Assembly (NCBI GenBank): GCA_001795795.1
Contig: MGKV01000007.1
Span: 14,553-76,806, forward strand
DNA from: Candidatus Yanofskybacteria bacterium RIFCSPLOWO2_02_FULL_45_18
GTDB taxonomy: Bacteria; Patescibacteriota; Minisyncoccia; 2-02-FULL-40-12; GWA2-44-9
Direction: 5' to 3'
Length of the DNA stretch: 62,254 bases
Under the pieces are notes generated by a model. It saw only the letters and a program-made list of their open reading frames with translations, was not told where the DNA came from and did not search any database. Within the stretch, counting starts at the first letter, position 1, and each line of letters starts with the position of its first letter. This document shows positions 1 through 45,494 of this stretch, one piece after another. The translations under genes were made by a program, and so were the position numbers.

Positions 1-114
1 CTAGTTTGTGGCCCGACCCCTGTGCAATGATGAAAAAGATGGGGGTGGGCGGAGCGGCAGTTGACGTAAAAAATAAAGGTTGCGTTATGCGGTTTATTTC
101 GGTAAGCTGGGGCG

Positions 115-816
115 ATGGAATCGTACGTAATCATTCCGACATACAACGAACGGGGTAATATCGGCCCGATATTGGAACAGATATTTTCGGTAGTTCCGGA
201 GACGTACATTTTAGTCGTGGACGACAACTCACCGGACGGGACGCAGGAGGTCGTCCGTGAGCTGCAAACCAGATACCCCAAGCTCTGGCTTTTAGCGCGT
301 CCAGAAAAACTTGGCCTAGGTAAGGCGTACGTGAACGCCTTTAATTATTTGAAAGAAAAGGAATGCGAAGGCGTCTTTGTCACGATGGATGCCGATTTTT
401 CGCATGACCCCGCGGCTTTGCCAGGGCTACTGGCCGCCGCTGAAAATCACGGCTTGGTTATCGGCTCACGCTATGTGCGGGGTGGGAGCATCGTTCATTG
501 GGAATTTTGGCGGCGGTTTCTAAGCTACGGCGCCAATTTCTATTACCGTATCATCACGCGCATCCCCGTCAAAGATTTGACTACCGGTTATACGGCGATG
601 CAGAGCCGGGCATTGTGGCAGCTAGACCTGTCATCCCTGAATGCCTCTGGGTATGCGTTCCTTTTTGAGTTAAAATATAGGTCGTGGAAGTCGGGCGTGC
701 CACTGATTGAAATTCCTATCACGTTTTCCGAACGGCGGCTGGGTAATTCCAAAGTATCAATGCATATAATCTACGAAAATTTTATCGTCCCATGGCGCTT
801 ACTATTAAAAAATTAA
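115..816 (+). CDS. GT2-family polyprenol-phosphate mannosyltransferase-like glycosyltransferase (Dpm1/Ppm1 type)
   Basis: 233-aa ORF. IIPTYNE, VVDDNSPDGT and DADFSHDP motifs are typical of GT-A family 2 enzymes. Overlaps the next ORF by 25 nt. Confidence 0.8.
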   Translation: MESYVIIPTYNERGNIGPILEQIFSVVPETYILVVDDNSPDGTQEVVRELQTRYPKLWLLARPEKLGLGKAYVNAFNYLKEKECEGVFVTMDADFSHDPAALPGLLAAAENHGLVIGSRYVRGGSIVHWEFWRRFLSYGANFYYRIITRIPVKDLTTGYTAMQSRALWQLDLSSLNASGYAFLFELKYRSWKSGVPLIEIPITFSERRLGNSKVSMHIIYENFIVPWRLLLKN

Positions 817-2165
817 TAACCAGAACGAATAAGAAAGATTTAGCCTTGCTCATCGGGATATGCGCCTTGATAATTGGTGTTTTAATATTTCAGCAGAGGA
901 TTTTTGTGCGTAATGATTTTTATGTTGCCCATCACTTTGGGGAAAATTGGCCGATGCTCAAAACGATATCGATTATTCTGGGAGCGCTTTATCTGGGGCT
1001 GTGGGCGGTTATCAGAAATACAAAAATTTCTGCAAAGAACATTCTCGTCATTGCTTCCACGGCTTTTATTTTGATAGCCGGTGTAGCCTTGGTGACCCAC
1101 CCGACGCGTTCGCAGGATTTGTATCATAGCTTATTATTAGGTAAAGGGCTTACGGAGTCTGGGTTGAATCCCTATACCACTGCGCCGCAAGACGTGGATT
1201 ATCCGTCTTGGAATTATCCGGTGCTGGCCTGGAAAGATGTCGCCATGCCTTACGGTCCCATCTGGTCAGATATTGTCATCGGTATCGCGTATGTGACGAG
1301 TTCGTTGGGTGTGGCTCTTGTTCTGGCCAAATCATTTTTTATTTTAGTACTCGCATTTTTAGGTTTTCTGCTGTTTAAGCTCGCACAGCATCAGAGCTTT
1401 ACGCGGGAGGCCGCGGCGAAAATTACTGCGCTATTTTTGCTGAATCCGTTTATCATCCAGACAGTGTTGATTGACGGCCATAGCGATATTTTGGTCGGTT
1501 TCTTTCTGATGGTGAGTTTGTATTTGTTATCCCGCGAGAAATATGGCTTCAGCATTCTGGCATTGGCGGCCGGCGGGTTGGTCAAATATTCGCCGTTTAT
1601 GATTATGTTCGCGCCCGTCTATCTGGCCATCAGGAAATATGGTTTCAAAAAAATAGGGCAATTGCTGGCCGGACTGGTTGTCTCCGTGGCCTTGGTTATC
1701 AGCGTGTATCATCCTTTTGATGCCACAATCCGCGGGATTATAAAACTCGTCTTAGGTATTAATCTGCAGGGGCTGGCGACAGAATTTTTACCGGGGACGA
1801 CCATGCTAATACAATATTTCCATATGACGCCCAGTCATTTAAGGATATTCGGCATCGTGGCTGCAATAGCAGTTCTGGTCTGGGCGTTACACAAAAAGAA
1901 GATTGCCCTGGCTTATACGATGCCGTTTATTGTGTTCTTCTTTTTCGCTACAACGTGGTTTCAGGCCTGGTATGTACTGTGGCTGATGCCGGTTATTTTT
2001 CTGGCCTGGCCGTCCGTGGCGGTGGTATTGATGACCGCATTGCTGTTGCCCATGCCGGAACTGATTTCTCCATCCATGGTATCCTATGTCGCCATGACTA
2101 TTATTTCGGTCGTTTTATTTTTCCGTTATTTGTCGCATGAGGATGGGCGCGCAGACACCCGATGA
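792..2165 (+). CDS. Polytopic membrane protein, probable GT-C type glycosyl/mannosyltransferase partner of the upstream GT2
   Basis: 457-aa ORF with many hydrophobic helices, translationally coupled to the GT2 gene. The family assignment is inferred from context only. Confidence 0.55.
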   Translation: MALTIKKLITRTNKKDLALLIGICALIIGVLIFQQRIFVRNDFYVAHHFGENWPMLKTISIILGALYLGLWAVIRNTKISAKNILVIASTAFILIAGVALVTHPTRSQDLYHSLLLGKGLTESGLNPYTTAPQDVDYPSWNYPVLAWKDVAMPYGPIWSDIVIGIAYVTSSLGVALVLAKSFFILVLAFLGFLLFKLAQHQSFTREAAAKITALFLLNPFIIQTVLIDGHSDILVGFFLMVSLYLLSREKYGFSILALAAGGLVKYSPFMIMFAPVYLAIRKYGFKKIGQLLAGLVVSVALVISVYHPFDATIRGIIKLVLGINLQGLATEFLPGTTMLIQYFHMTPSHLRIFGIVAAIAVLVWALHKKKIALAYTMPFIVFFFFATTWFQAWYVLWLMPVIFLAWPSVAVVLMTALLLPMPELISPSMVSYVAMTIISVVLFFRYLSHEDGRADTR

Positions 2166-2644
2166 AATCCGTGTATCTGATTTTGGATAATATCCGCAGC
2201 GCCCACAACGTGGGCTCTATTTTCCGTACCGCCGATGCGGCGGGCGTGGCCAAGATATATTTGTGTGGAATCACGCCCAAACCGTCGGGTGAGGGTGAAC
2301 TGCCCGTCGGCGGCCGTGCCAAAATGGAGAAAACTTCGCTGGGTGCCGAGAAAATGGTGGCCTGGGAATATGCCGCGCAATCCTGGCGGATTTTAAAAAA
2401 ATTAAAAGGGGAGAGTAGGCGAGTTATCGCATTGGAACTCTCCCCCGCCAGCAAGAATATTTTTAAATACAAAGCAAAAGCGGGGAAACCACTGGTTCTG
2501 GTTGTTGGGCATGAGCGTAGGGGTTTGTCTAAAAAAATCCTGGAATACGTGGACGATATCGTAGAGATACCCATGCATGGCAGAAAAGAATCATTAAATG
2601 TAAGCGTGGCGACCGGGATAGCTTTATACCAGTTGCTGCGCTAG
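2162..2644 (+). CDS. SpoU/TrmH-family RNA 2'-O-ribose methyltransferase
   Basis: 160-aa ORF with the motifs NVGSIFRTADAAG, VVGHERRGLS and IPMHG..ESLNVSVATGIALYQL. ATGA overlap with the previous ORF. Confidence 0.85.
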   Translation: MKSVYLILDNIRSAHNVGSIFRTADAAGVAKIYLCGITPKPSGEGELPVGGRAKMEKTSLGAEKMVAWEYAAQSWRILKKLKGESRRVIALELSPASKNIFKYKAKAGKPLVLVVGHERRGLSKKILEYVDDIVEIPMHGRKESLNVSVATGIALYQLLR

Positions 2645-2768
2645 CATTGTCCCGATTTTGTTATCCGCCCTAGCCGGAGTTATAAAATCGAGAATCCTCG
2701 ATTTTTCTACTCTACGGATGAAAAATTGGGACATTGTATCAAATAACAAAATGAGCTAATATTTGCTG

Positions 2769-2969
2769 ATGGACGAAAGGGAAATTGTAAAAACAATAGA
2801 TCCAGCGATTCAGAAAAAAATTCAAGAAGAGAAAGAAAAGCGTGGACGGGGTTGGAATGAACGAAAACAGCTTGAGATTATTGAAGATGAACCAACTGAT
2901 AAATCTCAAGATGGCGGCGAAGAACCAGATGAAAAATCTCCGGATCTCAAGACGGTTATCAAGTTTTAA
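2769..2969 (+). CDS. Small acidic hypothetical protein
   Basis: ATG at 2769 inside the track ORF 2763..2969. Highly charged 66 aa, followed by a terminator hairpin. Confidence 0.45.
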   Translation: MDEREIVKTIDPAIQKKIQEEKEKRGRGWNERKQLEIIEDEPTDKSQDGGEEPDEKSPDLKTVIKF

Positions 2970-3010: not shown

Positions 3011-3661
3011 ATGAGATTTCCCAACAAAACTTTAGAAAAGCAACTTTTCAAATCCGGCTATCAGCTGGTTGTTGGCGTGGATGAAGTGGGGACGGGTTCT
3101 CTGGCTGGGCCAGTGGTGGTTTGCGCCGTGGCGATGACCAACACTTTTTATAATAAACATCATAAAAAACTGCGTCGCCTTCGTGATTCCAAATTACTAC
3201 TCCCCCACCAGAGAGAAAAATTTTCAAAACAGCTAATTCGCGAATCAAATCTGGCTTACGCTATTGCCTCAGCCAGCCCAAAGGTTGTTGACAAGATTAA
3301 TGTTTATCAAGCGGCGCGGAGAGCGATGAAGAGAGCTATTGTGGCCCTTCGGCCGATTCAGGGCAATAAGTACTGTCGGACGATAGTACTTATTGATGGC
3401 AAAACAAAAATCAACGGGCTCGAATTAGAACAGATGCCTATCGTTAAGGGCGACTGCAAGGTGTTCGCAATCGCCTGCGCCTCGGTTATCGCCAAGGTCC
3501 ACCGCGACAAAATGATGGTTTGCTACGCTAAACGTTATCCGGGCTATGGCTTTGAAAGGCATAAAGGATATGGGACAAAGTACCATCAAGCACAGCTTCT
3601 AAAACAAGGCCCTTGCGCCATACACAGGGAATCCTTTGCACCAGTTGCAAAATTAATCTAG
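3011..3661 (+). CDS. rnhB: Ribonuclease HII
   Basis: VGVDEVGTGSLAGPVVVCAV active-site region and the C-terminal HR.SF motif. ATG at 3011 is preferred over the track TTG at 3005. Confidence 0.9.
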   Translation: MRFPNKTLEKQLFKSGYQLVVGVDEVGTGSLAGPVVVCAVAMTNTFYNKHHKKLRRLRDSKLLLPHQREKFSKQLIRESNLAYAIASASPKVVDKINVYQAARRAMKRAIVALRPIQGNKYCRTIVLIDGKTKINGLELEQMPIVKGDCKVFAIACASVIAKVHRDKMMVCYAKRYPGYGFERHKGYGTKYHQAQLLKQGPCAIHRESFAPVAKLI

Positions 3662-3691
3662 AATGGATAAATAACCTTGTAATTTTTTACT

Positions 3692-4768
3692 ATGGCAAGA
3701 ATTGCAATTAACGGCTTCGGCCGCATTGGACGCGCGTTTTTTAAATTGGCATTGGAAAAGCCGGAGTTGGATATTGTTGCCATTAACGACCTTGGAGATA
3801 TTGAATTTCTGGCCTACTTGCTTAGGTTTGATTCGGTTTACGGTAAGTTTAAAAAATCCGTTTCAATAAAAGAAGGCAATCCTTCAATAAGTTCAGGACA
3901 AAAACAAAAGTTTTTGGTTGTAGGGGGCAAGGAAACGTTATTTTTGCAGGAAAAAGATCCTCTGAATCTGCCGTGGAAGGATTTGGGTGTTGATATTGTG
4001 GTTGAATCCACTGGTGTCTTTGAAAGCTATGAAAAGGCGAGAGTCCACATAGCGGCGGGCGCCAAAAGGGTAGTCCTGACTGCTCCGGCGAAAGACGAAG
4101 ATGGTTCGGTAAACTCACCACAAGTCGGCCCAGATGGCCGCACAGTATTAGTTGGTGTCAATGATGACCAGCTTAAAACCTGTACCATATCCTCCAACGG
4201 TTCTTGTACTACCAATTCTGTTTCCCCCGTTATGCAAATTTTGACGGAGAAGCTGGGCGTGAAGAAGGCATATCTTAACACTACGCATGGCTATACGGCA
4301 ACGCAGGTTTTGATGGACGGCTTGCCGGGTAAATCAAAGGACTTTAGGCGCGGGCGGGCGGCGGCGGCTAATATTATTCCTTCTACAACCGGCGCGACGA
4401 CGGCGGTGGCAAGGGCGATAGAATCGCTCCGCGGTAAGTTTGACGGCATATCTTTGCGGGTGCCGGTGCTGGACGGCTCAATCTCGGCCATTACTTTTAT
4501 TTCGGAAAAACCGACCACGGTTGAGGAGATAAACAATATTTTCAAAGAAGCGGAAAAAGATCCGCGCTGGCAGGGCATTCTGCGCACCACCGAAGACCCT
4601 GTCGTCTCAACTGACATTGTTGGCGATCCGTGCGCGGCCATTGCAGACCTCTCCCTTACGCGGGTGGTGGACGGCGACTTGTGTTGCGTTTACAGTTGGT
4701 ATGACAATGAGTTTGGGTATACGAATACATTGGTGCGGCATGTTATTAAAGTGGCCGCCACTTTGTAA
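3692..4768 (+). CDS. gap: Glyceraldehyde-3-phosphate dehydrogenase
   Basis: INGFGRIGR Rossmann motif, SNGSCTTN catalytic Cys motif and WYDNEFGY at the C-terminus. Confidence 0.95.
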   Translation: MARIAINGFGRIGRAFFKLALEKPELDIVAINDLGDIEFLAYLLRFDSVYGKFKKSVSIKEGNPSISSGQKQKFLVVGGKETLFLQEKDPLNLPWKDLGVDIVVESTGVFESYEKARVHIAAGAKRVVLTAPAKDEDGSVNSPQVGPDGRTVLVGVNDDQLKTCTISSNGSCTTNSVSPVMQILTEKLGVKKAYLNTTHGYTATQVLMDGLPGKSKDFRRGRAAAANIIPSTTGATTAVARAIESLRGKFDGISLRVPVLDGSISAITFISEKPTTVEEINNIFKEAEKDPRWQGILRTTEDPVVSTDIVGDPCAAIADLSLTRVVDGDLCCVYSWYDNEFGYTNTLVRHVIKVAATL

Positions 4769-4860
4769 ATTAAAAATGCAAAGTGAAAAATTAAAAATTC
4801 AGGTTATTGAAAATTTTTATAAAAATTTTTAATTTTAATCATTTTGATTTTTGAATTTTA

Positions 4861-5145
4861 ATGAAAAATTTTTTTGAAATTTTTCATAACATCGGCCCCC
4901 AATACGCCTTCATCGGCGGGGAGGACTTGCGTCGCGGCATATTGCTTAGTGTGCCCACGCTGGCAATCCTTTTGGTTACCGGCGCCTTGATATTGATTGA
5001 AGCAATCATGCAGAAAAACATCGTCAAAGGAGGATTCGGACGCTTTGTTTTATGGCTGTGCGTCAAAATTGGATTTGCCGGCCTGATTGTCAGTATAATC
5101 TACCTCGCCATCGGCGGCGTTAAATTATTAATTTCTAAGTTTTGA
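4861..5145 (+). CDS. Small membrane protein, hypothetical
   Basis: 94-aa ORF with two clear hydrophobic helices. Confidence 0.55.
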   Translation: MKNFFEIFHNIGPQYAFIGGEDLRRGILLSVPTLAILLVTGALILIEAIMQKNIVKGGFGRFVLWLCVKIGFAGLIVSIIYLAIGGVKLLISKF

Positions 5146-40233: not shown

Positions 40234-40263
40234 TTGACACTAACACTCATATTTTGTTATTAT
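40234..40263 (+). promoter_or_regulatory. Candidate sigma70-type promoter of the str operon
   Basis: TTGACA (40234..40239), an 18-nt spacer, then TATTAT (40258..40263). Confidence 0.5.
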
Positions 40264-40335: not shown

Positions 40336-40746
40336 ATGCCCACATATAGACAACTTCTAAAAAACCCTAGAAAGACCACTAAAGCTAAAACAAAATCACC
40401 GGCTTTAATTTTTGGTTTTAACGCCTTGAAGAACCGGCCGGTGGATTACCCCGCTCCTTTTAAGCGGGGTGTTTGTCTGCAGGTCAGAACCATGACTCCC
40501 AAAAAGCCGAACTCGGCATTGCGTAAAATTGCCCGCGTCAGATTGACTAATGGTATGGAGGTAACCGCTTATATCCCCGGCATCGGCCACAACTTGCAAG
40601 AGCATTCGGTCGTGGTATTGCGCGGCGGAAGGGTTAAGGATTTGCCGGGTATCCGCTATCATATTGTCAGGGGTGTTTTGGACACTGGCGGAGTAGAAGG
40701 CCGGAAACAGCAAAGGTCCAAGTATGGAGCTAAGAGATCAAAATAA
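40336..40746 (+). CDS. rpsL: 30S ribosomal protein S12
   Basis: MPTYRQLLK..., [10 protein letters not shown] and RGG.VKDLPG.RY motifs. Confidence 0.97.
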
Positions 40747-41213
40747 TGCGGAGACCTGTCAAAAAAAGAATTGAGATAAATCCGGATATAAAATATTCCA
40801 GCGTTTTGGTTTCCAAATTCATCAACAAAATCATGATTGCCGGCAAAAAATCAATTGCCAGCAAGATCGTATATGGCGCGCTAGAAGATGCCGAGAAAAA
40901 ATTGCAGAAACCCTCGCTGGAAATATTGGAACAAGCCGTGCAGAATGTCAGCCCCTCAATACAGCTTAAGTCCCGAAGGGTTGGCGGTGCCAACTATCAG
41001 ATCCCGGTGGAGGTCAAGCCGGAACGCCGGCTGATGCTGGCGATTATGTGGATTGTCGGCGCGGCGCGGTCGCAAAAAGGCAAAGAGATGAAAGTCAGGC
41101 TTGCTGATGAATTCATCAGCGCTTTCAACAACACCGGCAATGCCGTTAAGAAAAAACTTGACACTCATCGCATGGCCGAGGCCAATAAAGCATTTGCGCA
41201 TTTTGCGTGGTAA
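40746..41213 (+). CDS. rpsG: 30S ribosomal protein S7
   Basis: Position after rpsL. GKKS.A..IVY and RRVGGANYQIPVEV motifs. Confidence 0.96.
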   Translation: MRRPVKKRIEINPDIKYSSVLVSKFINKIMIAGKKSIASKIVYGALEDAEKKLQKPSLEILEQAVQNVSPSIQLKSRRVGGANYQIPVEVKPERRLMLAIMWIVGAARSQKGKEMKVRLADEFISAFNNTGNAVKKKLDTHRMAEANKAFAHFAW

Positions 41214-41224
41214 ATTAGGCAAGT

Positions 41225-41617
41225 ATGATAGAAAGATATTTTAGAAAGGATATCAAACGAGAGATTCCAATTTTTGAAGAAAATGACCTTTTTTCTTTGA
41301 AGGAATTAAGGCGGGGGATGGTTTTTAACTATAAAGGCTACGAAATTACAATTGCTGATCCGACAGCTAAAGATACTACACCATCTCTAATTACTCTCGA
41401 CCTACTTTCTGGGAAATGGATTATTGTTCTTAACGAAGATGTTCCCTTGTCTTTGGTTGTTCCCATTCTTGAGCACGAGGTTTATGAGATAGAGCACAAA
41501 AACCATGAAAAAGCTGTTGAAATTGGAAGAATTAAAGCAGAGGAGTTGGGAGTATTGAATAATTTTTTGGAGTTTGAATATCGATGGCGGGATCATAACA
41601 ATAATTTAAAGCAATGA
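41225..41617 (+). CDS. Hypothetical AT-rich ORF inserted between rpsG and fusA
   Basis: 130-aa ORF whose stop overlaps the fusA ATG (ATGA). Contains a His/Glu cluster, [14 protein letters not shown]. Confidence 0.6.
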
Positions 41618-43716
41618 GAGATTATCCTATCGAAAAAACTAGGAATATCGGTATTATAGCCCACATAGATGCAGGCAAAACGACCGTTTCAGAGCGGGTT
41701 CTTTTTTATACCGGAATTTCTCATAAAATCGGCGAAGTGCACGAGGGCGAAGCGATAATGGATTGGATGGAACAAGAGCGTGAACGCGGCATTACTATAA
41801 CTGCCGCGGCAACAACCGTGTTTTGGGCCCCTACTGATTCATCTGGTTCGGGCGACAAAATTAAGATTAACTTGATTGATACCCCCGGGCATATAGATTT
41901 TACCGTAGAGGTAAAACGCTCTCTTCGCGTGTTGGATGGAGCGGTTGTCGTTTTTGACGGAGTTGCCGGTGTGGAGCCGCAGTCAGAAACCAACTGGCGT
42001 TATGCCGACGATTACAATGTCCCGCGGCTTTGTTTTATTAATAAGCTTGACCGGTTGGGCGCTTCTTTTGACAAATCTTTCCGGTCAATCTTGGAACGGC
42101 TTTCGCCTCATGCGGTTAAAATTCAGATTCCTGACGGCCACGAAGATAAATTTACTGGCGTTGTGGACTTGCTTGAAATGAAGTTCTATGTTTTTGAAGG
42201 CGAAAAGGGAGAAAAAGTCATCAAAAAAGAAATACCGGCAGACCTCGTGGCCGAAGCGGAGAAAGAAAGAGCGATTGCCGTTGAAAAAATTGTTGAAACT
42301 GATGACGAGGCAATGTCGCAATATCTTGAGGGGAAAGAACCCTCTTTGGAAAATCTGCGCCGGCTTTTACGCAAAGCCGTTATTGCCGGTAAAATTTATC
42401 CCGTGTTTTGCGGCTCGGCCTTAAAAAATAAAGGCGTACAACTTATGCTGGATGCGGTGGCCTATTATTTGCCGTCTCCATTAGATGTGCCGGCAGTTAA
42501 GGGCACTGAAGTAAAAACAGGCCAGGAAACAATCCGTGAAGCTCGTGACGACGCGCCGTTCGCGGCCCTAGCTTTTAAGGTTGCCAGTGATCCTTATGTG
42601 GGTCAGCTTACTTTTTTCCGCGTTTATTCGGGAGTTCTCGCGGCCGGTTCATACATTGTTAATACGACCAATGGACAACAGGAAAGAATTGGCCGCATTG
42701 TCCGGCTGCATGCCAACCAAAGGGAGGAAATAAAAGAAATCCATGCCGGCAATATTGCCGCTGCGGTTGGATTGAAGAATACTAAGACCGGCGATACGCT
42801 TTGCGCTCCGGACAGCCAGATTATTTTGGAAAGAATTATTTTTCCCGAACCCGTCATCTCTTTGCGGATTGAACCTAAGACCAAAGCCGACCAGGAAAAA
42901 ATGGGGCTTGCTTTGCATAAACTTTCGGACGAAGATCCCACTTTTCGGGTCGCTGGCGATGAAGAAACCGGTGAAACGATTATTTCCGGCATGGGCGAAT
43001 TGCACCTTGATGTTCTTGTTGACCGGATGAAAAGGGAATTCGGCGTAGGCGCCAATGTCGGCCGCCCCCAAGTTGCTTACAAAGAAACTATTTCTTCAGC
43101 CGCTGAAGCCGAGGGAAAATATATCCGTCAGTCGGGAGGACGCGGACAATATGGCCATGTTTGGCTGCGCGTTGAGCCGAAAGAACGCGGCGGCGGTTAT
43201 GAATTTGTTGACGACATTAAGGGTGGAGTTATACCGCAGGAGTTCATCGCTCCGTCCGAAAAAGGAGTTAAGGAGGCAATGAGCAAAGGTGTTTTGGCCG
43301 GTTTTCCCATGGTTGATATGCAGGTTACTTTATATGACGGTTCTTATCACGAGGTTGATTCTTCGGAAATTGCCTTCAAAATCGCCGCTTCGGCGGCATT
43401 GCGGGAAGCGACCAAAAGGGCCAAGCCGATTCTGCTTGAACCGATAATGAAAGTGGAAATAATCGTGCCGGAACAATTCTTGGGGGAAACAACCGGTGAT
43501 TTGGCCTCTCGGCGCGGGCAGATTATGAGCATTAACGACCGTAGCCCGCTTAATTTAAAAGTTATTGAGTCAAGGGTTCCGTTGTCGGAAATGTTTGGCT
43601 ATGCCACCTCCTTGAGGTCGCTGACCGAAGGGCGAGGTACTTTTAACATGGAATTTGAACTTTACGACATTGTGCCTAATAATATAGTGGCGCAAATTAT
43701 CGAAGGGAAAAAATAA
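41614..43716 (+). CDS. fusA: Elongation factor G
   Basis: [22 protein letters not shown] and NKLD GTPase motifs across 700 aa. Confidence 0.98.
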
Positions 43717-43812: not shown

Positions 43813-44151
43813 ATGGACATAAAAGAATTAAAAAAATTAATAAAAAACGGCGGTTCAGCAGTGATACTTGAAAATGGCGAGCCCTCATTTGTCGTCCTTG
43901 GCTATGAAACTTACAAAAATTTGGACAGTGGAGGCGAGGAGAAGGATATTAAAATAAATCACGCAAATTCTATGCGGCACATTAAGGCGGATACGGATGA
44001 TTATCACAACTCCAATTTTTCCGAAGCGACCAGAGGCAATCTTGAGACCGAAATACTTGAGAAGTTTAATAAGGAGATAGCGGCCATAAAAAGCCAGATT
44101 GAATCGGAAGAGAAAAATTTAATTCAAACCGAAGATTGGCCTGATTTTTAA
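43813..44151 (+). CDS. Hypothetical protein with Phd/YefM-antitoxin-like N-terminus
   Basis: 112-aa ORF. GGSAVILENGEPSFVVLGYETYKNL resembles the Phd/YefM N-domain. No partner toxin ORF. Confidence 0.5.
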   Translation: MDIKELKKLIKNGGSAVILENGEPSFVVLGYETYKNLDSGGEEKDIKINHANSMRHIKADTDDYHNSNFSEATRGNLETEILEKFNKEIAAIKSQIESEEKNLIQTEDWPDF

Positions 44152-44291
44152 AGGACATGTGCGGGGTTGACTTTAACTTATAATTTGCTAAAATACTAAA
44201 ACATACTTATTTTAGTTTCTAGGTTCTAGTTTCTAGGTTTCATCATCCGCGAAAACTATAAGCTACAAGCTATAAACTATAAGCTATTCAG

Positions 44292-45494
44292 ATGGCAGAA
44301 AAATTTGAGAGGACAAAGCCGCATGTAAATGTAGGCACCATTGGCCATGTTGACCATGGCAAAACAACGCTTACCGCGTCGATTTTGCATACTTTAAACA
44401 TGCTTAAAGACGAGGGCTATTCGGCCCGTGTTGAAGCCGTAGACCAGATTGACAACGCGCCGGAAGAAAAAGCCCGCGGTATTACGATTGCCTTGCACCA
44501 CTCTCAATATGAAACTCCGAAAAGACACTATGCCCACATTGATGCTCCCGGTCATGCCGACTATATTAAAAATATGATTACGGGGGCGGCTCAAATGGAC
44601 GGCGCGGTTTTAGTCGTTGCCGCGACTGACGGTCCGATGCCCCAAACTCGCGAGCACATCTTGCTTGCTAGGCAAGTAGGTGTTCCGGCAATTATCGTCT
44701 TCTTAAATAAAGTTGACCAGGTTGATGATCCGGAAATGCTTGATTTGGTTGAGGCCGAGATTAGAGAACTCTTGAATAAATATCAATATCCCGGCGATAC
44801 CACTCCGATTATCCGCGGGTCGGCCTTAAAAGCGCTTGAGTCCAAATCCAAAGAAGATCCGGCTGTTCAGCCGATCAGGCAATTAATTGATGCATTAGAT
44901 AGTTATATTCCTGAACCGCTCAGAGATTACGATAAGCCATTCTTGATGCCGATTGAAGATATTTTTTCAATTGAAGGCCGCGGCACGGTGGTAACTGGCA
45001 AGATTGAGCGCGGAAAAATAAAGTTAAATGATGAAATTGAGATTGTCGGTTTGCGTCCTACAACCAAAACGGTTGTTACCGGCATTGAAATGTTCAACCG
45101 GCAGCTTGACGAAGGCATGGCAGGCGACAACGAGGGAATACTGTTGCGCGGCACCAAGAAAGAGGATGTTGAAAGAGGGCAGGTTTTAGCCAAGCCTAGC
45201 AGTATAACTCCGCATACAGAATTTGAAGCCGAAATTTATGTTTTAACCAAAGAGGAGGGCGGCCGGCATACCCCGTTCTTAAAAGGCTATAAACCGCAAT
45301 TTTACTTTAGGACGACCGATGTAACCGGTGAGACCTTTCTGCCCGAAGGGACCGAAATGGTAATGCCCGGCGACACGGTAACACTAAAAGTAAAATTGAT
45401 TGCTCCTATCGCCATGGAAGAAAAACAGCGGTTCGCCATTAGGGAAGGTGGCAAGACTGTCGGCGCGGGAGCGGTTACCAAAATTATCGCATAA
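44292..45494 (+). CDS. tuf: Elongation factor Tu
   Basis: [18 protein letters not shown] and NKVD motifs. Confidence 0.99.

Follow-up and report, generated by a model that had tools for sequence, protein, structure and literature searches.

The window analyzed here is a stretch of 62,254 nucleotides from the genome of Candidatus Yanofskybacteria bacterium RIFCSPLOWO2_02_FULL_45_18, a groundwater-type member of the Parcubacteria, and it carries the genes rpsL, rpsG, fusA, and tuf of the str operon. Between rpsG and fusA lies an ORF of 130 amino acids, here named orfX, that was singled out in an earlier reading of the sequence (the original prediction). The features of the locus are as follows.

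40234..40263, plus strand: promoter-like site with the highest score (11 of 12 matches), located upstream of rpsL (consensus scan only)
about 40336..40746, plus strand: rpsL
40746..41213, plus strand: rpsG (ribosomal protein S7), the upstream flank of orfX; ORF, with Pfam Ribosomal_S7 on the near-identical contig L002
41225..41617, plus strand: orfX; ORF call, ATG start, 130 amino acids
41614..41617, plus strand: ATGA stop/start overlap of orfX and fusA, read from the sequence
41614..43716, plus strand: fusA (EF-G), the downstream flank of orfX
43813..44151, plus strand: 112-amino acid ORF between fusA and tuf
44292..45494, plus strand: tuf

Both the ORF at the rpsG–fusA junction and the overlap of its stop codon with the fusA start codon, as originally predicted, were confirmed. 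The orfX start codon follows the rpsG stop codon by 11 nucleotides and has an in-frame TAG just 5′ of it. By tblastn against the whole genome, the fusA gene of the window is the only gene for EF-G.

The original prediction had also described orfX as richer in A and T than its neighbors on the basis of hand counts, which proved to be exact (38 G+C in the first 118 nucleotides of orfX versus 47 in the first 120 of fusA). Over the entire gene, the GC content is 0.349 versus 0.47 for rpsG and fusA, which places orfX in the lowest 2% of the ORFs of the genome. Relative to the 617 ORFs of this 627-kb genome, its GC content falls at the 1.8th percentile (mean 0.454, SD 0.041) and its GC3 of 0.313 at the 1.6th percentile (mean 0.487).

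The consensus scan placed another of its best promoter matches upstream of tuf, at 44167, and yielded no strong promoter-like or terminator-like site between rpsG and orfX or between orfX and fusA. Because no promoter-like site stands out before orfX or fusA, co-transcription of orfX with the str operon is likely, and the rpsL–rpsG–orfX–fusA transcript likely starts at the site upstream of rpsL. An ATGA overlap is the classical arrangement for translational coupling, and this is the arrangement found at the orfX–fusA junction. Fold predictions for the junction revealed no special RNA structure (z = −0.17), and the str region of the window has no match in Rfam. The fusA start codon is not preceded by a Shine–Dalgarno-like sequence. 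A rough count over 615 naive, uncurated ORFs found a loose Shine–Dalgarno-like motif within 20 nucleotides upstream in only ~21% of them, and the str operon genes without such a motif include orfX, fusA, and tuf.

orfX is a genuine gene from a rare protein family

The protein encoded by orfX is 15.5 kDa, acidic (pI 5.3), free of cysteine, and soluble. It had been described as the product of an orphan ORF, a designation that must be abandoned given that about 21 homologues exist. The resulting family of about 22 proteins, which falls into three subfamilies, is undescribed and has metagenome contigs as its only source. A search of 1.84 billion representative proteins returned six clusters, among them one copy with 98% identity and four groups with identities of 40 to 54%. 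A profile search of a 5.8-billion protein collection raised the total to 19 proteins, and a metagenome scan contributed further loci. The 98% identical copy, on contig L002 (ENA assembly ERZ27254743), belongs to the same strain, with five differences in 7090 nucleotides and identical synteny.

Twenty sequences were aligned over a core of ~100 residues, in which they are 32 to 49% identical to the window protein and share 17 invariant positions (G38, E40, P53, D59, G63, P74, P80, E83, H84, E85, Y87, E88, H94, A105, F114, F117, and W121). A maximum-likelihood tree resolves the three subfamilies, with support of 100/100 for the deepest split. Values of dN/dS within the family range from 0.09 to 0.23 (Nei–Gojobori, for pairs with unsaturated dS). 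Because of these values and a confident structural model (pLDDT 82.6), the orfX reading frame is conserved beyond what chance would produce. From these findings we conclude that orfX is a genuine gene under constraint in a rare, undescribed family.

The same data bear on the possibility that the locus is not a protein gene. The ORF might overlie a noncoding fusA leader by chance, or it might specify a leader peptide for which the amino acid sequence is irrelevant. Some relatives do have ~210 nucleotides of partly conserved noncoding sequence at this junction. However, the window is unlike these spacers and without an Rfam match, homologues with identities of 32 to 58% share the 17 invariant residues, dN/dS is low, and the fold prediction is confident. 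We therefore consider a nonprotein explanation effectively excluded.

Scans of orfX and seven family members against Pfam, NCBIfam, PHROG, and PADLOC produced no match above noise, and a literature search found no report of such a gene. PDB sequence searches gave no sequence match of orfX to any solved chain. Several candidate relationships were rejected. The matches to POTRA, PepSY, and DUF4743 are weak and below the respective cut-offs. The PDB sequence searches, for which the orfX sequence itself and the profiles A1 and A3 served as queries, gave a match to microsporidian eL14 that is a chance result (E 0.04–0.24). In the search of representative proteins, P0007, a 7221-amino acid Ig-repeat protein, reached an E value of 1.4e-06 by summation over 15 repeats and is a repeat and composition artifact.

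The predicted fold carries an invariant His/Glu cluster

Structure prediction, which had been proposed together with the original prediction, places three helices after a four-strand β meander. AlphaFold arrived at the same model whether it was run on 7 sequences or on 20 (pLDDT 80.2 and 82.6, pTM 0.76), and three parts of the protein can be distinguished.

41225..41317, plus strand: lineage-specific N-terminal extension, residues 1–31, unconserved in alignments A1–A3 (pLDDT 42–64 over residues 1–20)
41321..41434, plus strand: four-strand β meander, residues 33–70, with invariant G38, E40, P53, D59, and G63 (DSSP on the model)
41471..41506, plus strand: E83-H84-E85-x-Y87-E88...H94 cluster, a putative metal or active site, invariant in 20 of the 20 aligned sequences

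By DSSP, the strands of the model comprise residues 33–36, 39–44, 54–58, and 65–70, whereas the N terminus is disordered. The helices comprise residues 75–91, 94–107, and 111–129, of which the first two are modeled at pLDDT 93–97. H84, E85, and E88 reside at the C-terminal end of the first helix, and H94 opens the second.

The original prediction had noted a His/Glu cluster (residues 82–95) that could bind metal. This cluster proved to be the core that is invariant across the family (E83, H84, E85, Y87, E88, and H94), and because of this invariance a metal site is a reasonable reading. In the model, the spacing of H84, E85, E88, and H94 is compatible with such a site. Judged from sequence and model, the orfX protein probably binds metal and is possibly a hydrolase.

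In zincins, the active site is formed by an HExxH helix that comes after a β sheet and provides a catalytic Glu and two metal ligands spaced by one turn, plus a third ligand downstream. The position of the orfX cluster corresponds to that of HExxH in zincins, but the second His is replaced by Glu in 20 of 20 members. Given this correspondence of the cluster and its downstream ligand, the protein would most likely bind metal and act as a hydrolase or in a peptidase-like manner, or it would be a pseudo-enzyme.

Foldseek searches of the PDB found no significant match to the orfX model (best E 0.2–0.7, TM ≤0.33). Zincins recur in the weak list, including MATCAP, IrrE/PprI, MMP-11, and DPP III, with the IrrE/PprI matches being nonsignificant at E 1–2 and TM 0.2–0.26. 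In BFVD, the best matches are mostly small phage proteins annotated as IrrE N-terminal-like, peptidase, or SprT-like (probability ≤0.97, E 0.02–0.1, TM 0.37–0.5), and those to IrrE-like proteins have probabilities of 0.94–0.97 but nonsignificant E values of 0.02–0.03 at TM 0.37–0.5.

Two zincin families were compared in detail. Like the 90- to 180-amino acid phage proteins of the ImmA/IrrE family (Peptidase_M78, PF06114), the orfX protein is small and presents a sheet followed by an H-E helix and a downstream ligand. However, the M78 motif is HExxH...E, whereas that of the orfX family is H-E-x-x-E...H. None of seven family members matches PF06114 at E ≤ 1, A3 reaches a probability of 0.1% when compared by hhalign with four M78 proteins encoded in related genomes, and at 12 loci no XRE/ImmR-type gene lies next to an orfX family gene, although a true M78 gene in the relative L051 does adjoin one. 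Membership in Peptidase_M78 was therefore rejected on the grounds of profile, motif, and gene partner.

The second family, Zincin_1 (PF06262), consists of minimal zincins that are common in small genomes. These resemble the orfX protein in size (~130 amino acids) and in having β strands and then a metal-binding helix near the C terminus. One Zincin_1 gene (L043, about 54–446) lies two genes upstream of an orfX gene of subfamily B, and none was found in 41 related genomes. However, hhalign with the L043 protein gives a probability of 0.5% and the motif helices are not collinear. Without a Pfam match, membership in Zincin_1 was likewise rejected. As modeled, the orfX protein is zincin-like in layout and lies outside every described family.

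Subfamily A recurs directly upstream of fusA

The gene of the window belongs to subfamily A, whose members lie directly upstream of fusA in five of seven lineages.

Window and L002: rpsL–rpsG–orfX–fusA, 4-nucleotide overlap of orfX and fusA
L038: rpsL–rpsG–orfX–fusA, 4-nucleotide gap between orfX and fusA
L047: rpsL–rpsG–orfX–fusA, 38-nucleotide gap
L001: orfX–fusA, preceded by a gene other than rpsG, 5-nucleotide gap
L042: 174-amino acid protein of unknown function–orfX–fusA, 11-nucleotide overlap

The remaining members of subfamily A (L036/L037 and L048) are on short contigs without fusA. The hosts of the fusA-linked genes are strongly diverged. S7 proteins of the window, L038, and L047 are 53 to 58% identical to one another, and EF-G proteins are 68 to 71% identical over at least 429 residues in three comparisons (window with L047, window with L001, and L047 with L001). 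Between these hosts the orfX proteins are 47 to 65% identical and are thus as conserved as S7. Among named organisms, L047 is most closely related to Azambacteria and other Parcubacteria MAGs, with which it shares 74 to 79% identity in S7, and no orfX was found in 80 loci from this neighborhood. Adjacency to fusA in five of seven lineages from hosts this diverged exceeds the expectation for a gene that fills a slot at random.

Contexts of subfamily B are varied and include Fic–orfX–S41 peptidase, Zincin_1–HAD–orfX, and LexA/methylase...orfX–DUF3887. Subfamily C always comes after a radical-SAM gene, with an overlap of ~50 nucleotides (L041 231–611, L045 5941–6321, and L050 1002–1385), such that the start of orfX is inside the 3′ end of the radical-SAM gene. 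This is a second conserved context of the family. Judging by its C-terminal sequence, the product of the radical-SAM gene resembles enzymes of the AmmeMemoRadiSam type (in Pfam, it matches Radical_SAM only). On L045, a DUF6485 gene comes after orfX, and DUF4013 genes are found farther downstream on both L045 and L050. L045 also encodes a ribonucleotide reductase with an intein (LAGLIDADG) and a second protein with intein and LAGLIDADG domains (55..2844 and 3406..4983).

The recurrence in subfamily A is what keeps alive the proposal, made in the original prediction, that orfX encodes a translation-associated factor, which now survives as a minority reading. In its most specific form, the orfX protein would act on or with EF-G, for example by processing, modifying, protecting, or regulating it, and for this reason the gene would be kept directly before fusA and its product made in step. 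Consistent with this, the distance to fusA stays between an 11-nucleotide overlap and a 38-nucleotide gap in the window, L038, L047, L001, and L042, and the pair holds even where the upstream neighbor is not rpsG (L001 and L042). The identity of the orfX proteins across hosts is like that of S7 and is close to that of EF-G (68 to 90%). Nevertheless, subfamilies B and C are never near fusA, nor are two members of subfamily A. Furthermore, orfX was found in none of the 104 other species of the order, yet the N-terminal 200 residues of EF-G in the relatives checked are 77 to 86% identical to those of the window. EF-G proteins of carrier genomes show no obvious special feature, and the orfX protein resembles no known partner of EF-G. 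We consider such a dedicated role unlikely, although not implausible.

FusB/FusC-type proteins, which bind EF-G, would offer a precedent for a small protein with a function tied to this factor. They are about 210 amino acids in length, have a Cys4 zinc site, and are not encoded next to fusA, whereas the orfX protein has 130 amino acids, contains no cysteine, and is encoded next to fusA. On this general description, the two are set apart. The position of orfX is also reminiscent of accessory genes embedded in the str operon, as is B. subtilis ybxF upstream of rpsL, in that a small nonribosomal gene is located inside rpsL–rpsG–fusA–tuf and is probably transcribed with the operon. A distinctive feature of the orfX family is that it recurs upstream of fusA in five diverged lineages and also occurs at unrelated loci.

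The copy of the window is divergent but intact

The phylogenetic position of the window copy raises another possibility, which is that this gene is a passenger in decay. The family would be functional elsewhere, but this copy would be under relaxed selection and would persist mainly because fusA translation now starts at the orfX overlap, so that an imprecise deletion would harm the essential fusA gene. The terminal branch of the window copy is much longer than any other in the tree (1.53 versus a median of 0.16), and at A54, A60, and R61 this copy lacks residues that the other 19 members share. Both of the differences from L002 that fall within orfX (two of the five in 7090 nucleotides) are nonsynonymous. 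The presence of the ATGA overlap without a Shine–Dalgarno-like sequence before fusA also fits this possibility. Note that the missing Shine–Dalgarno sequence says little because so few ORFs in this genome have even a loose match, and that two substitutions are too few for any test. In addition, the frame is open, and 17 of 17 invariant residues are intact, including those of E-H-E-x-Y-E...H. We consider decay of the window copy improbable.

The rpsG–fusA junction is a variable slot in Parcubacteria

The original prediction rested on the premise that the order of rpsG and fusA is nearly invariant, which fails in this phylum. Among 29 relatives from the order, the junction is ≤50 nucleotides in 9, 66 to 227 nucleotides in 14, and 312 to 575 nucleotides in 4 (range 0–575 for these 27), whereas fusA is more than 1.5 kb from rpsG in the other 2. 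In wider Parcubacteria, 18 of 73 scorable loci have ≥300 nucleotides at the junction or no fusA within reach. The overall range of junction length is 0 to >2000 nucleotides. Roughly one in four of the surveyed Parcubacteria loci has an insert at this slot; the inserts are unrelated to orfX, and many are AT-rich.

Insert loci include L008, L031, L016, L070, L123, L057, L062, L063, L076, and L132. The encoded products include GxxExxY-type proteins (L008 and L123), a four-helix-bundle protein of the 23S-IVS type (L031), a RelE/ParE-like pair (L070), and unknown proteins of 145 to 326 amino acids. Four other loci (L007, L012, L014, and L017) have spacers of 209 to 227 nucleotides upstream of fusA that are noncoding and partly conserved (ttcgttaaaa...ccata...gtatggctcg...ttttgcctcg). 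The conserved sequence, possibly a leader RNA, does not occur in the window, and no remnant of it was found within orfX. A different arrangement is seen in L031 (about 2396..2535) and L011 (about 2120..2281; both in reverse-complement coordinates), which come from different genera. Here, a truncated fusA start of 19 codons (M..AHID) is followed by an element of 80 to 110 nucleotides and then by the intact fusA start. The ends of the element are inverted repeats (GTCCCGATTT...AAATCGGGAC), and many synonymous differences separate the two fusA 5′ copies. The arrangement suggests a small mobile element next to a gene end that has been duplicated.

Distribution and composition of orfX point to acquisition

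Neither the 61 remaining species genomes of the family nor the 104 others of the order (73 of the 104 being at least 90% complete) gave a match to orfX, and a motif-pattern scan of species-representative genomes revealed no further copy. Because orfX was not found in these 104 other species, it is an accessory gene that was probably acquired. The 112-amino acid ORF downstream of fusA provides a contrast. Of 61 related genomes across the order, 55 contain a match to it, in most cases directly after fusA, and because of this distribution we regard it as a core gene of the str operon in this order. Its N terminus is weakly Phd/YefM-like (Pfam E 3.8e-4, below the cut-off), and L047 carries a similar ORF of 74 amino acids after its fusA.

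The composition of orfX is also foreign-looking in several hosts. In the window, L001, L038, and L047, its GC3 is 0.29 to 0.32 versus 0.38 to 0.57 in the flanks. Copies in low-GC hosts match the GC content of the host, and the L042 copy is like its higher-GC host, with a GC3 of 0.55. This pattern suggests that the gene spread out of low-GC genomes and has ameliorated in one of its hosts, and because of both distribution and composition we infer that orfX was acquired horizontally.

The suggestion that orfX is an insertion thus fits its patchy distribution and GC3, but nothing marks it as a selfish mobile element. The flanks of orfX contain only short repeats at the level expected by chance and no recombinase, and the spacers around orfX in five loci share neither a common sequence nor conserved boundaries. 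Around orfX, neither the 5′ end of fusA nor the 3′ end of rpsG is present in a second copy. As to co-transfer of flanking DNA, the fusA 5′ end of the window is no closer to the fusA genes of carriers than to those of relatives without orfX, whether compared at the nucleotide, third-position, or protein level. Phage, plasmid, and IMG/VR collections yielded no copies. With no such repeats, conserved boundaries, or recombinase, orfX does not qualify as a mobile gene cassette or insertion element.

A broader version of this suggestion is that orfX is a selfish or defense gene, such as half of a toxin–antitoxin system or a homing cassette, and takes advantage of the high expression of its operon. 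Its patchy distribution and foreign composition would be expected of such a gene, the same slot elsewhere harbors the RelE/ParE-like pair and GxxExxY-type genes, and one copy of subfamily B adjoins a Fic gene. However, the orfX family has no conserved partner gene, its neighbors differ between loci, and the Fic neighbor is not kept even within subfamily B. PADLOC returned zero matches, PHROG, Pfam, and NCBIfam returned none, and the hallmarks of mobility listed above are missing, as is a nuclease. On balance, we find a selfish or defensive function very unlikely.

Discussion

The explanation that we favor, with about even confidence, is that orfX is an acquired accessory gene for a small metal-binding, zincin-like protein with a function of its own. 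The gene would occupy a slot that is permissive and highly expressed, and its position would account for its coupling to fusA. By this account, a lineage would have gained orfX at the rpsG–fusA junction, which in Parcubacteria appears to tolerate such genes, and the gene would be read from the str operon transcript. Because the TGA of orfX overlaps the ATG of fusA, ribosomes that end translation of orfX could restart on fusA. The protein would bind metal and be hydrolase- or peptidase-like, or be a pseudo-enzyme derived from such a protein. Its activity is probably autonomous rather than specific for EF-G; subfamilies B, C, and two members of subfamily A reside in other contexts.

A bolder interpretation is that subfamily A represents a new small metal-dependent enzyme or binding factor that acts on EF-G or the translating ribosome through a variant H-E-x-x-E...H zincin site. 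Diverged lineages would then keep orfX at the start of fusA because the protein acts there. We regard this as improbable. All the same, a functional link to EF-G, at a similarly low probability, is the most interesting open possibility raised by this locus, and the translation apparatus of CPR bacteria is known to be atypical.

If the explanation we favor is correct, orfX would belong to an undescribed family of small proteins in which a zincin-like scaffold without confident structural relatives bears an unusual H-E-x-x-E...H site. It would also exemplify how, in CPR bacteria with their reduced genomes, accessory genes can settle in the supposedly fixed rpsL–rpsG–fusA–tuf cluster, and the recurrent placement of orfX before fusA in deeply diverged hosts would provide a testable lead toward a link with EF-G. 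Should orfX be unrelated to EF-G, it would be one more lineage-restricted accessory gene, and the finding would have value for annotation in identifying it as a real gene rather than an artifact.
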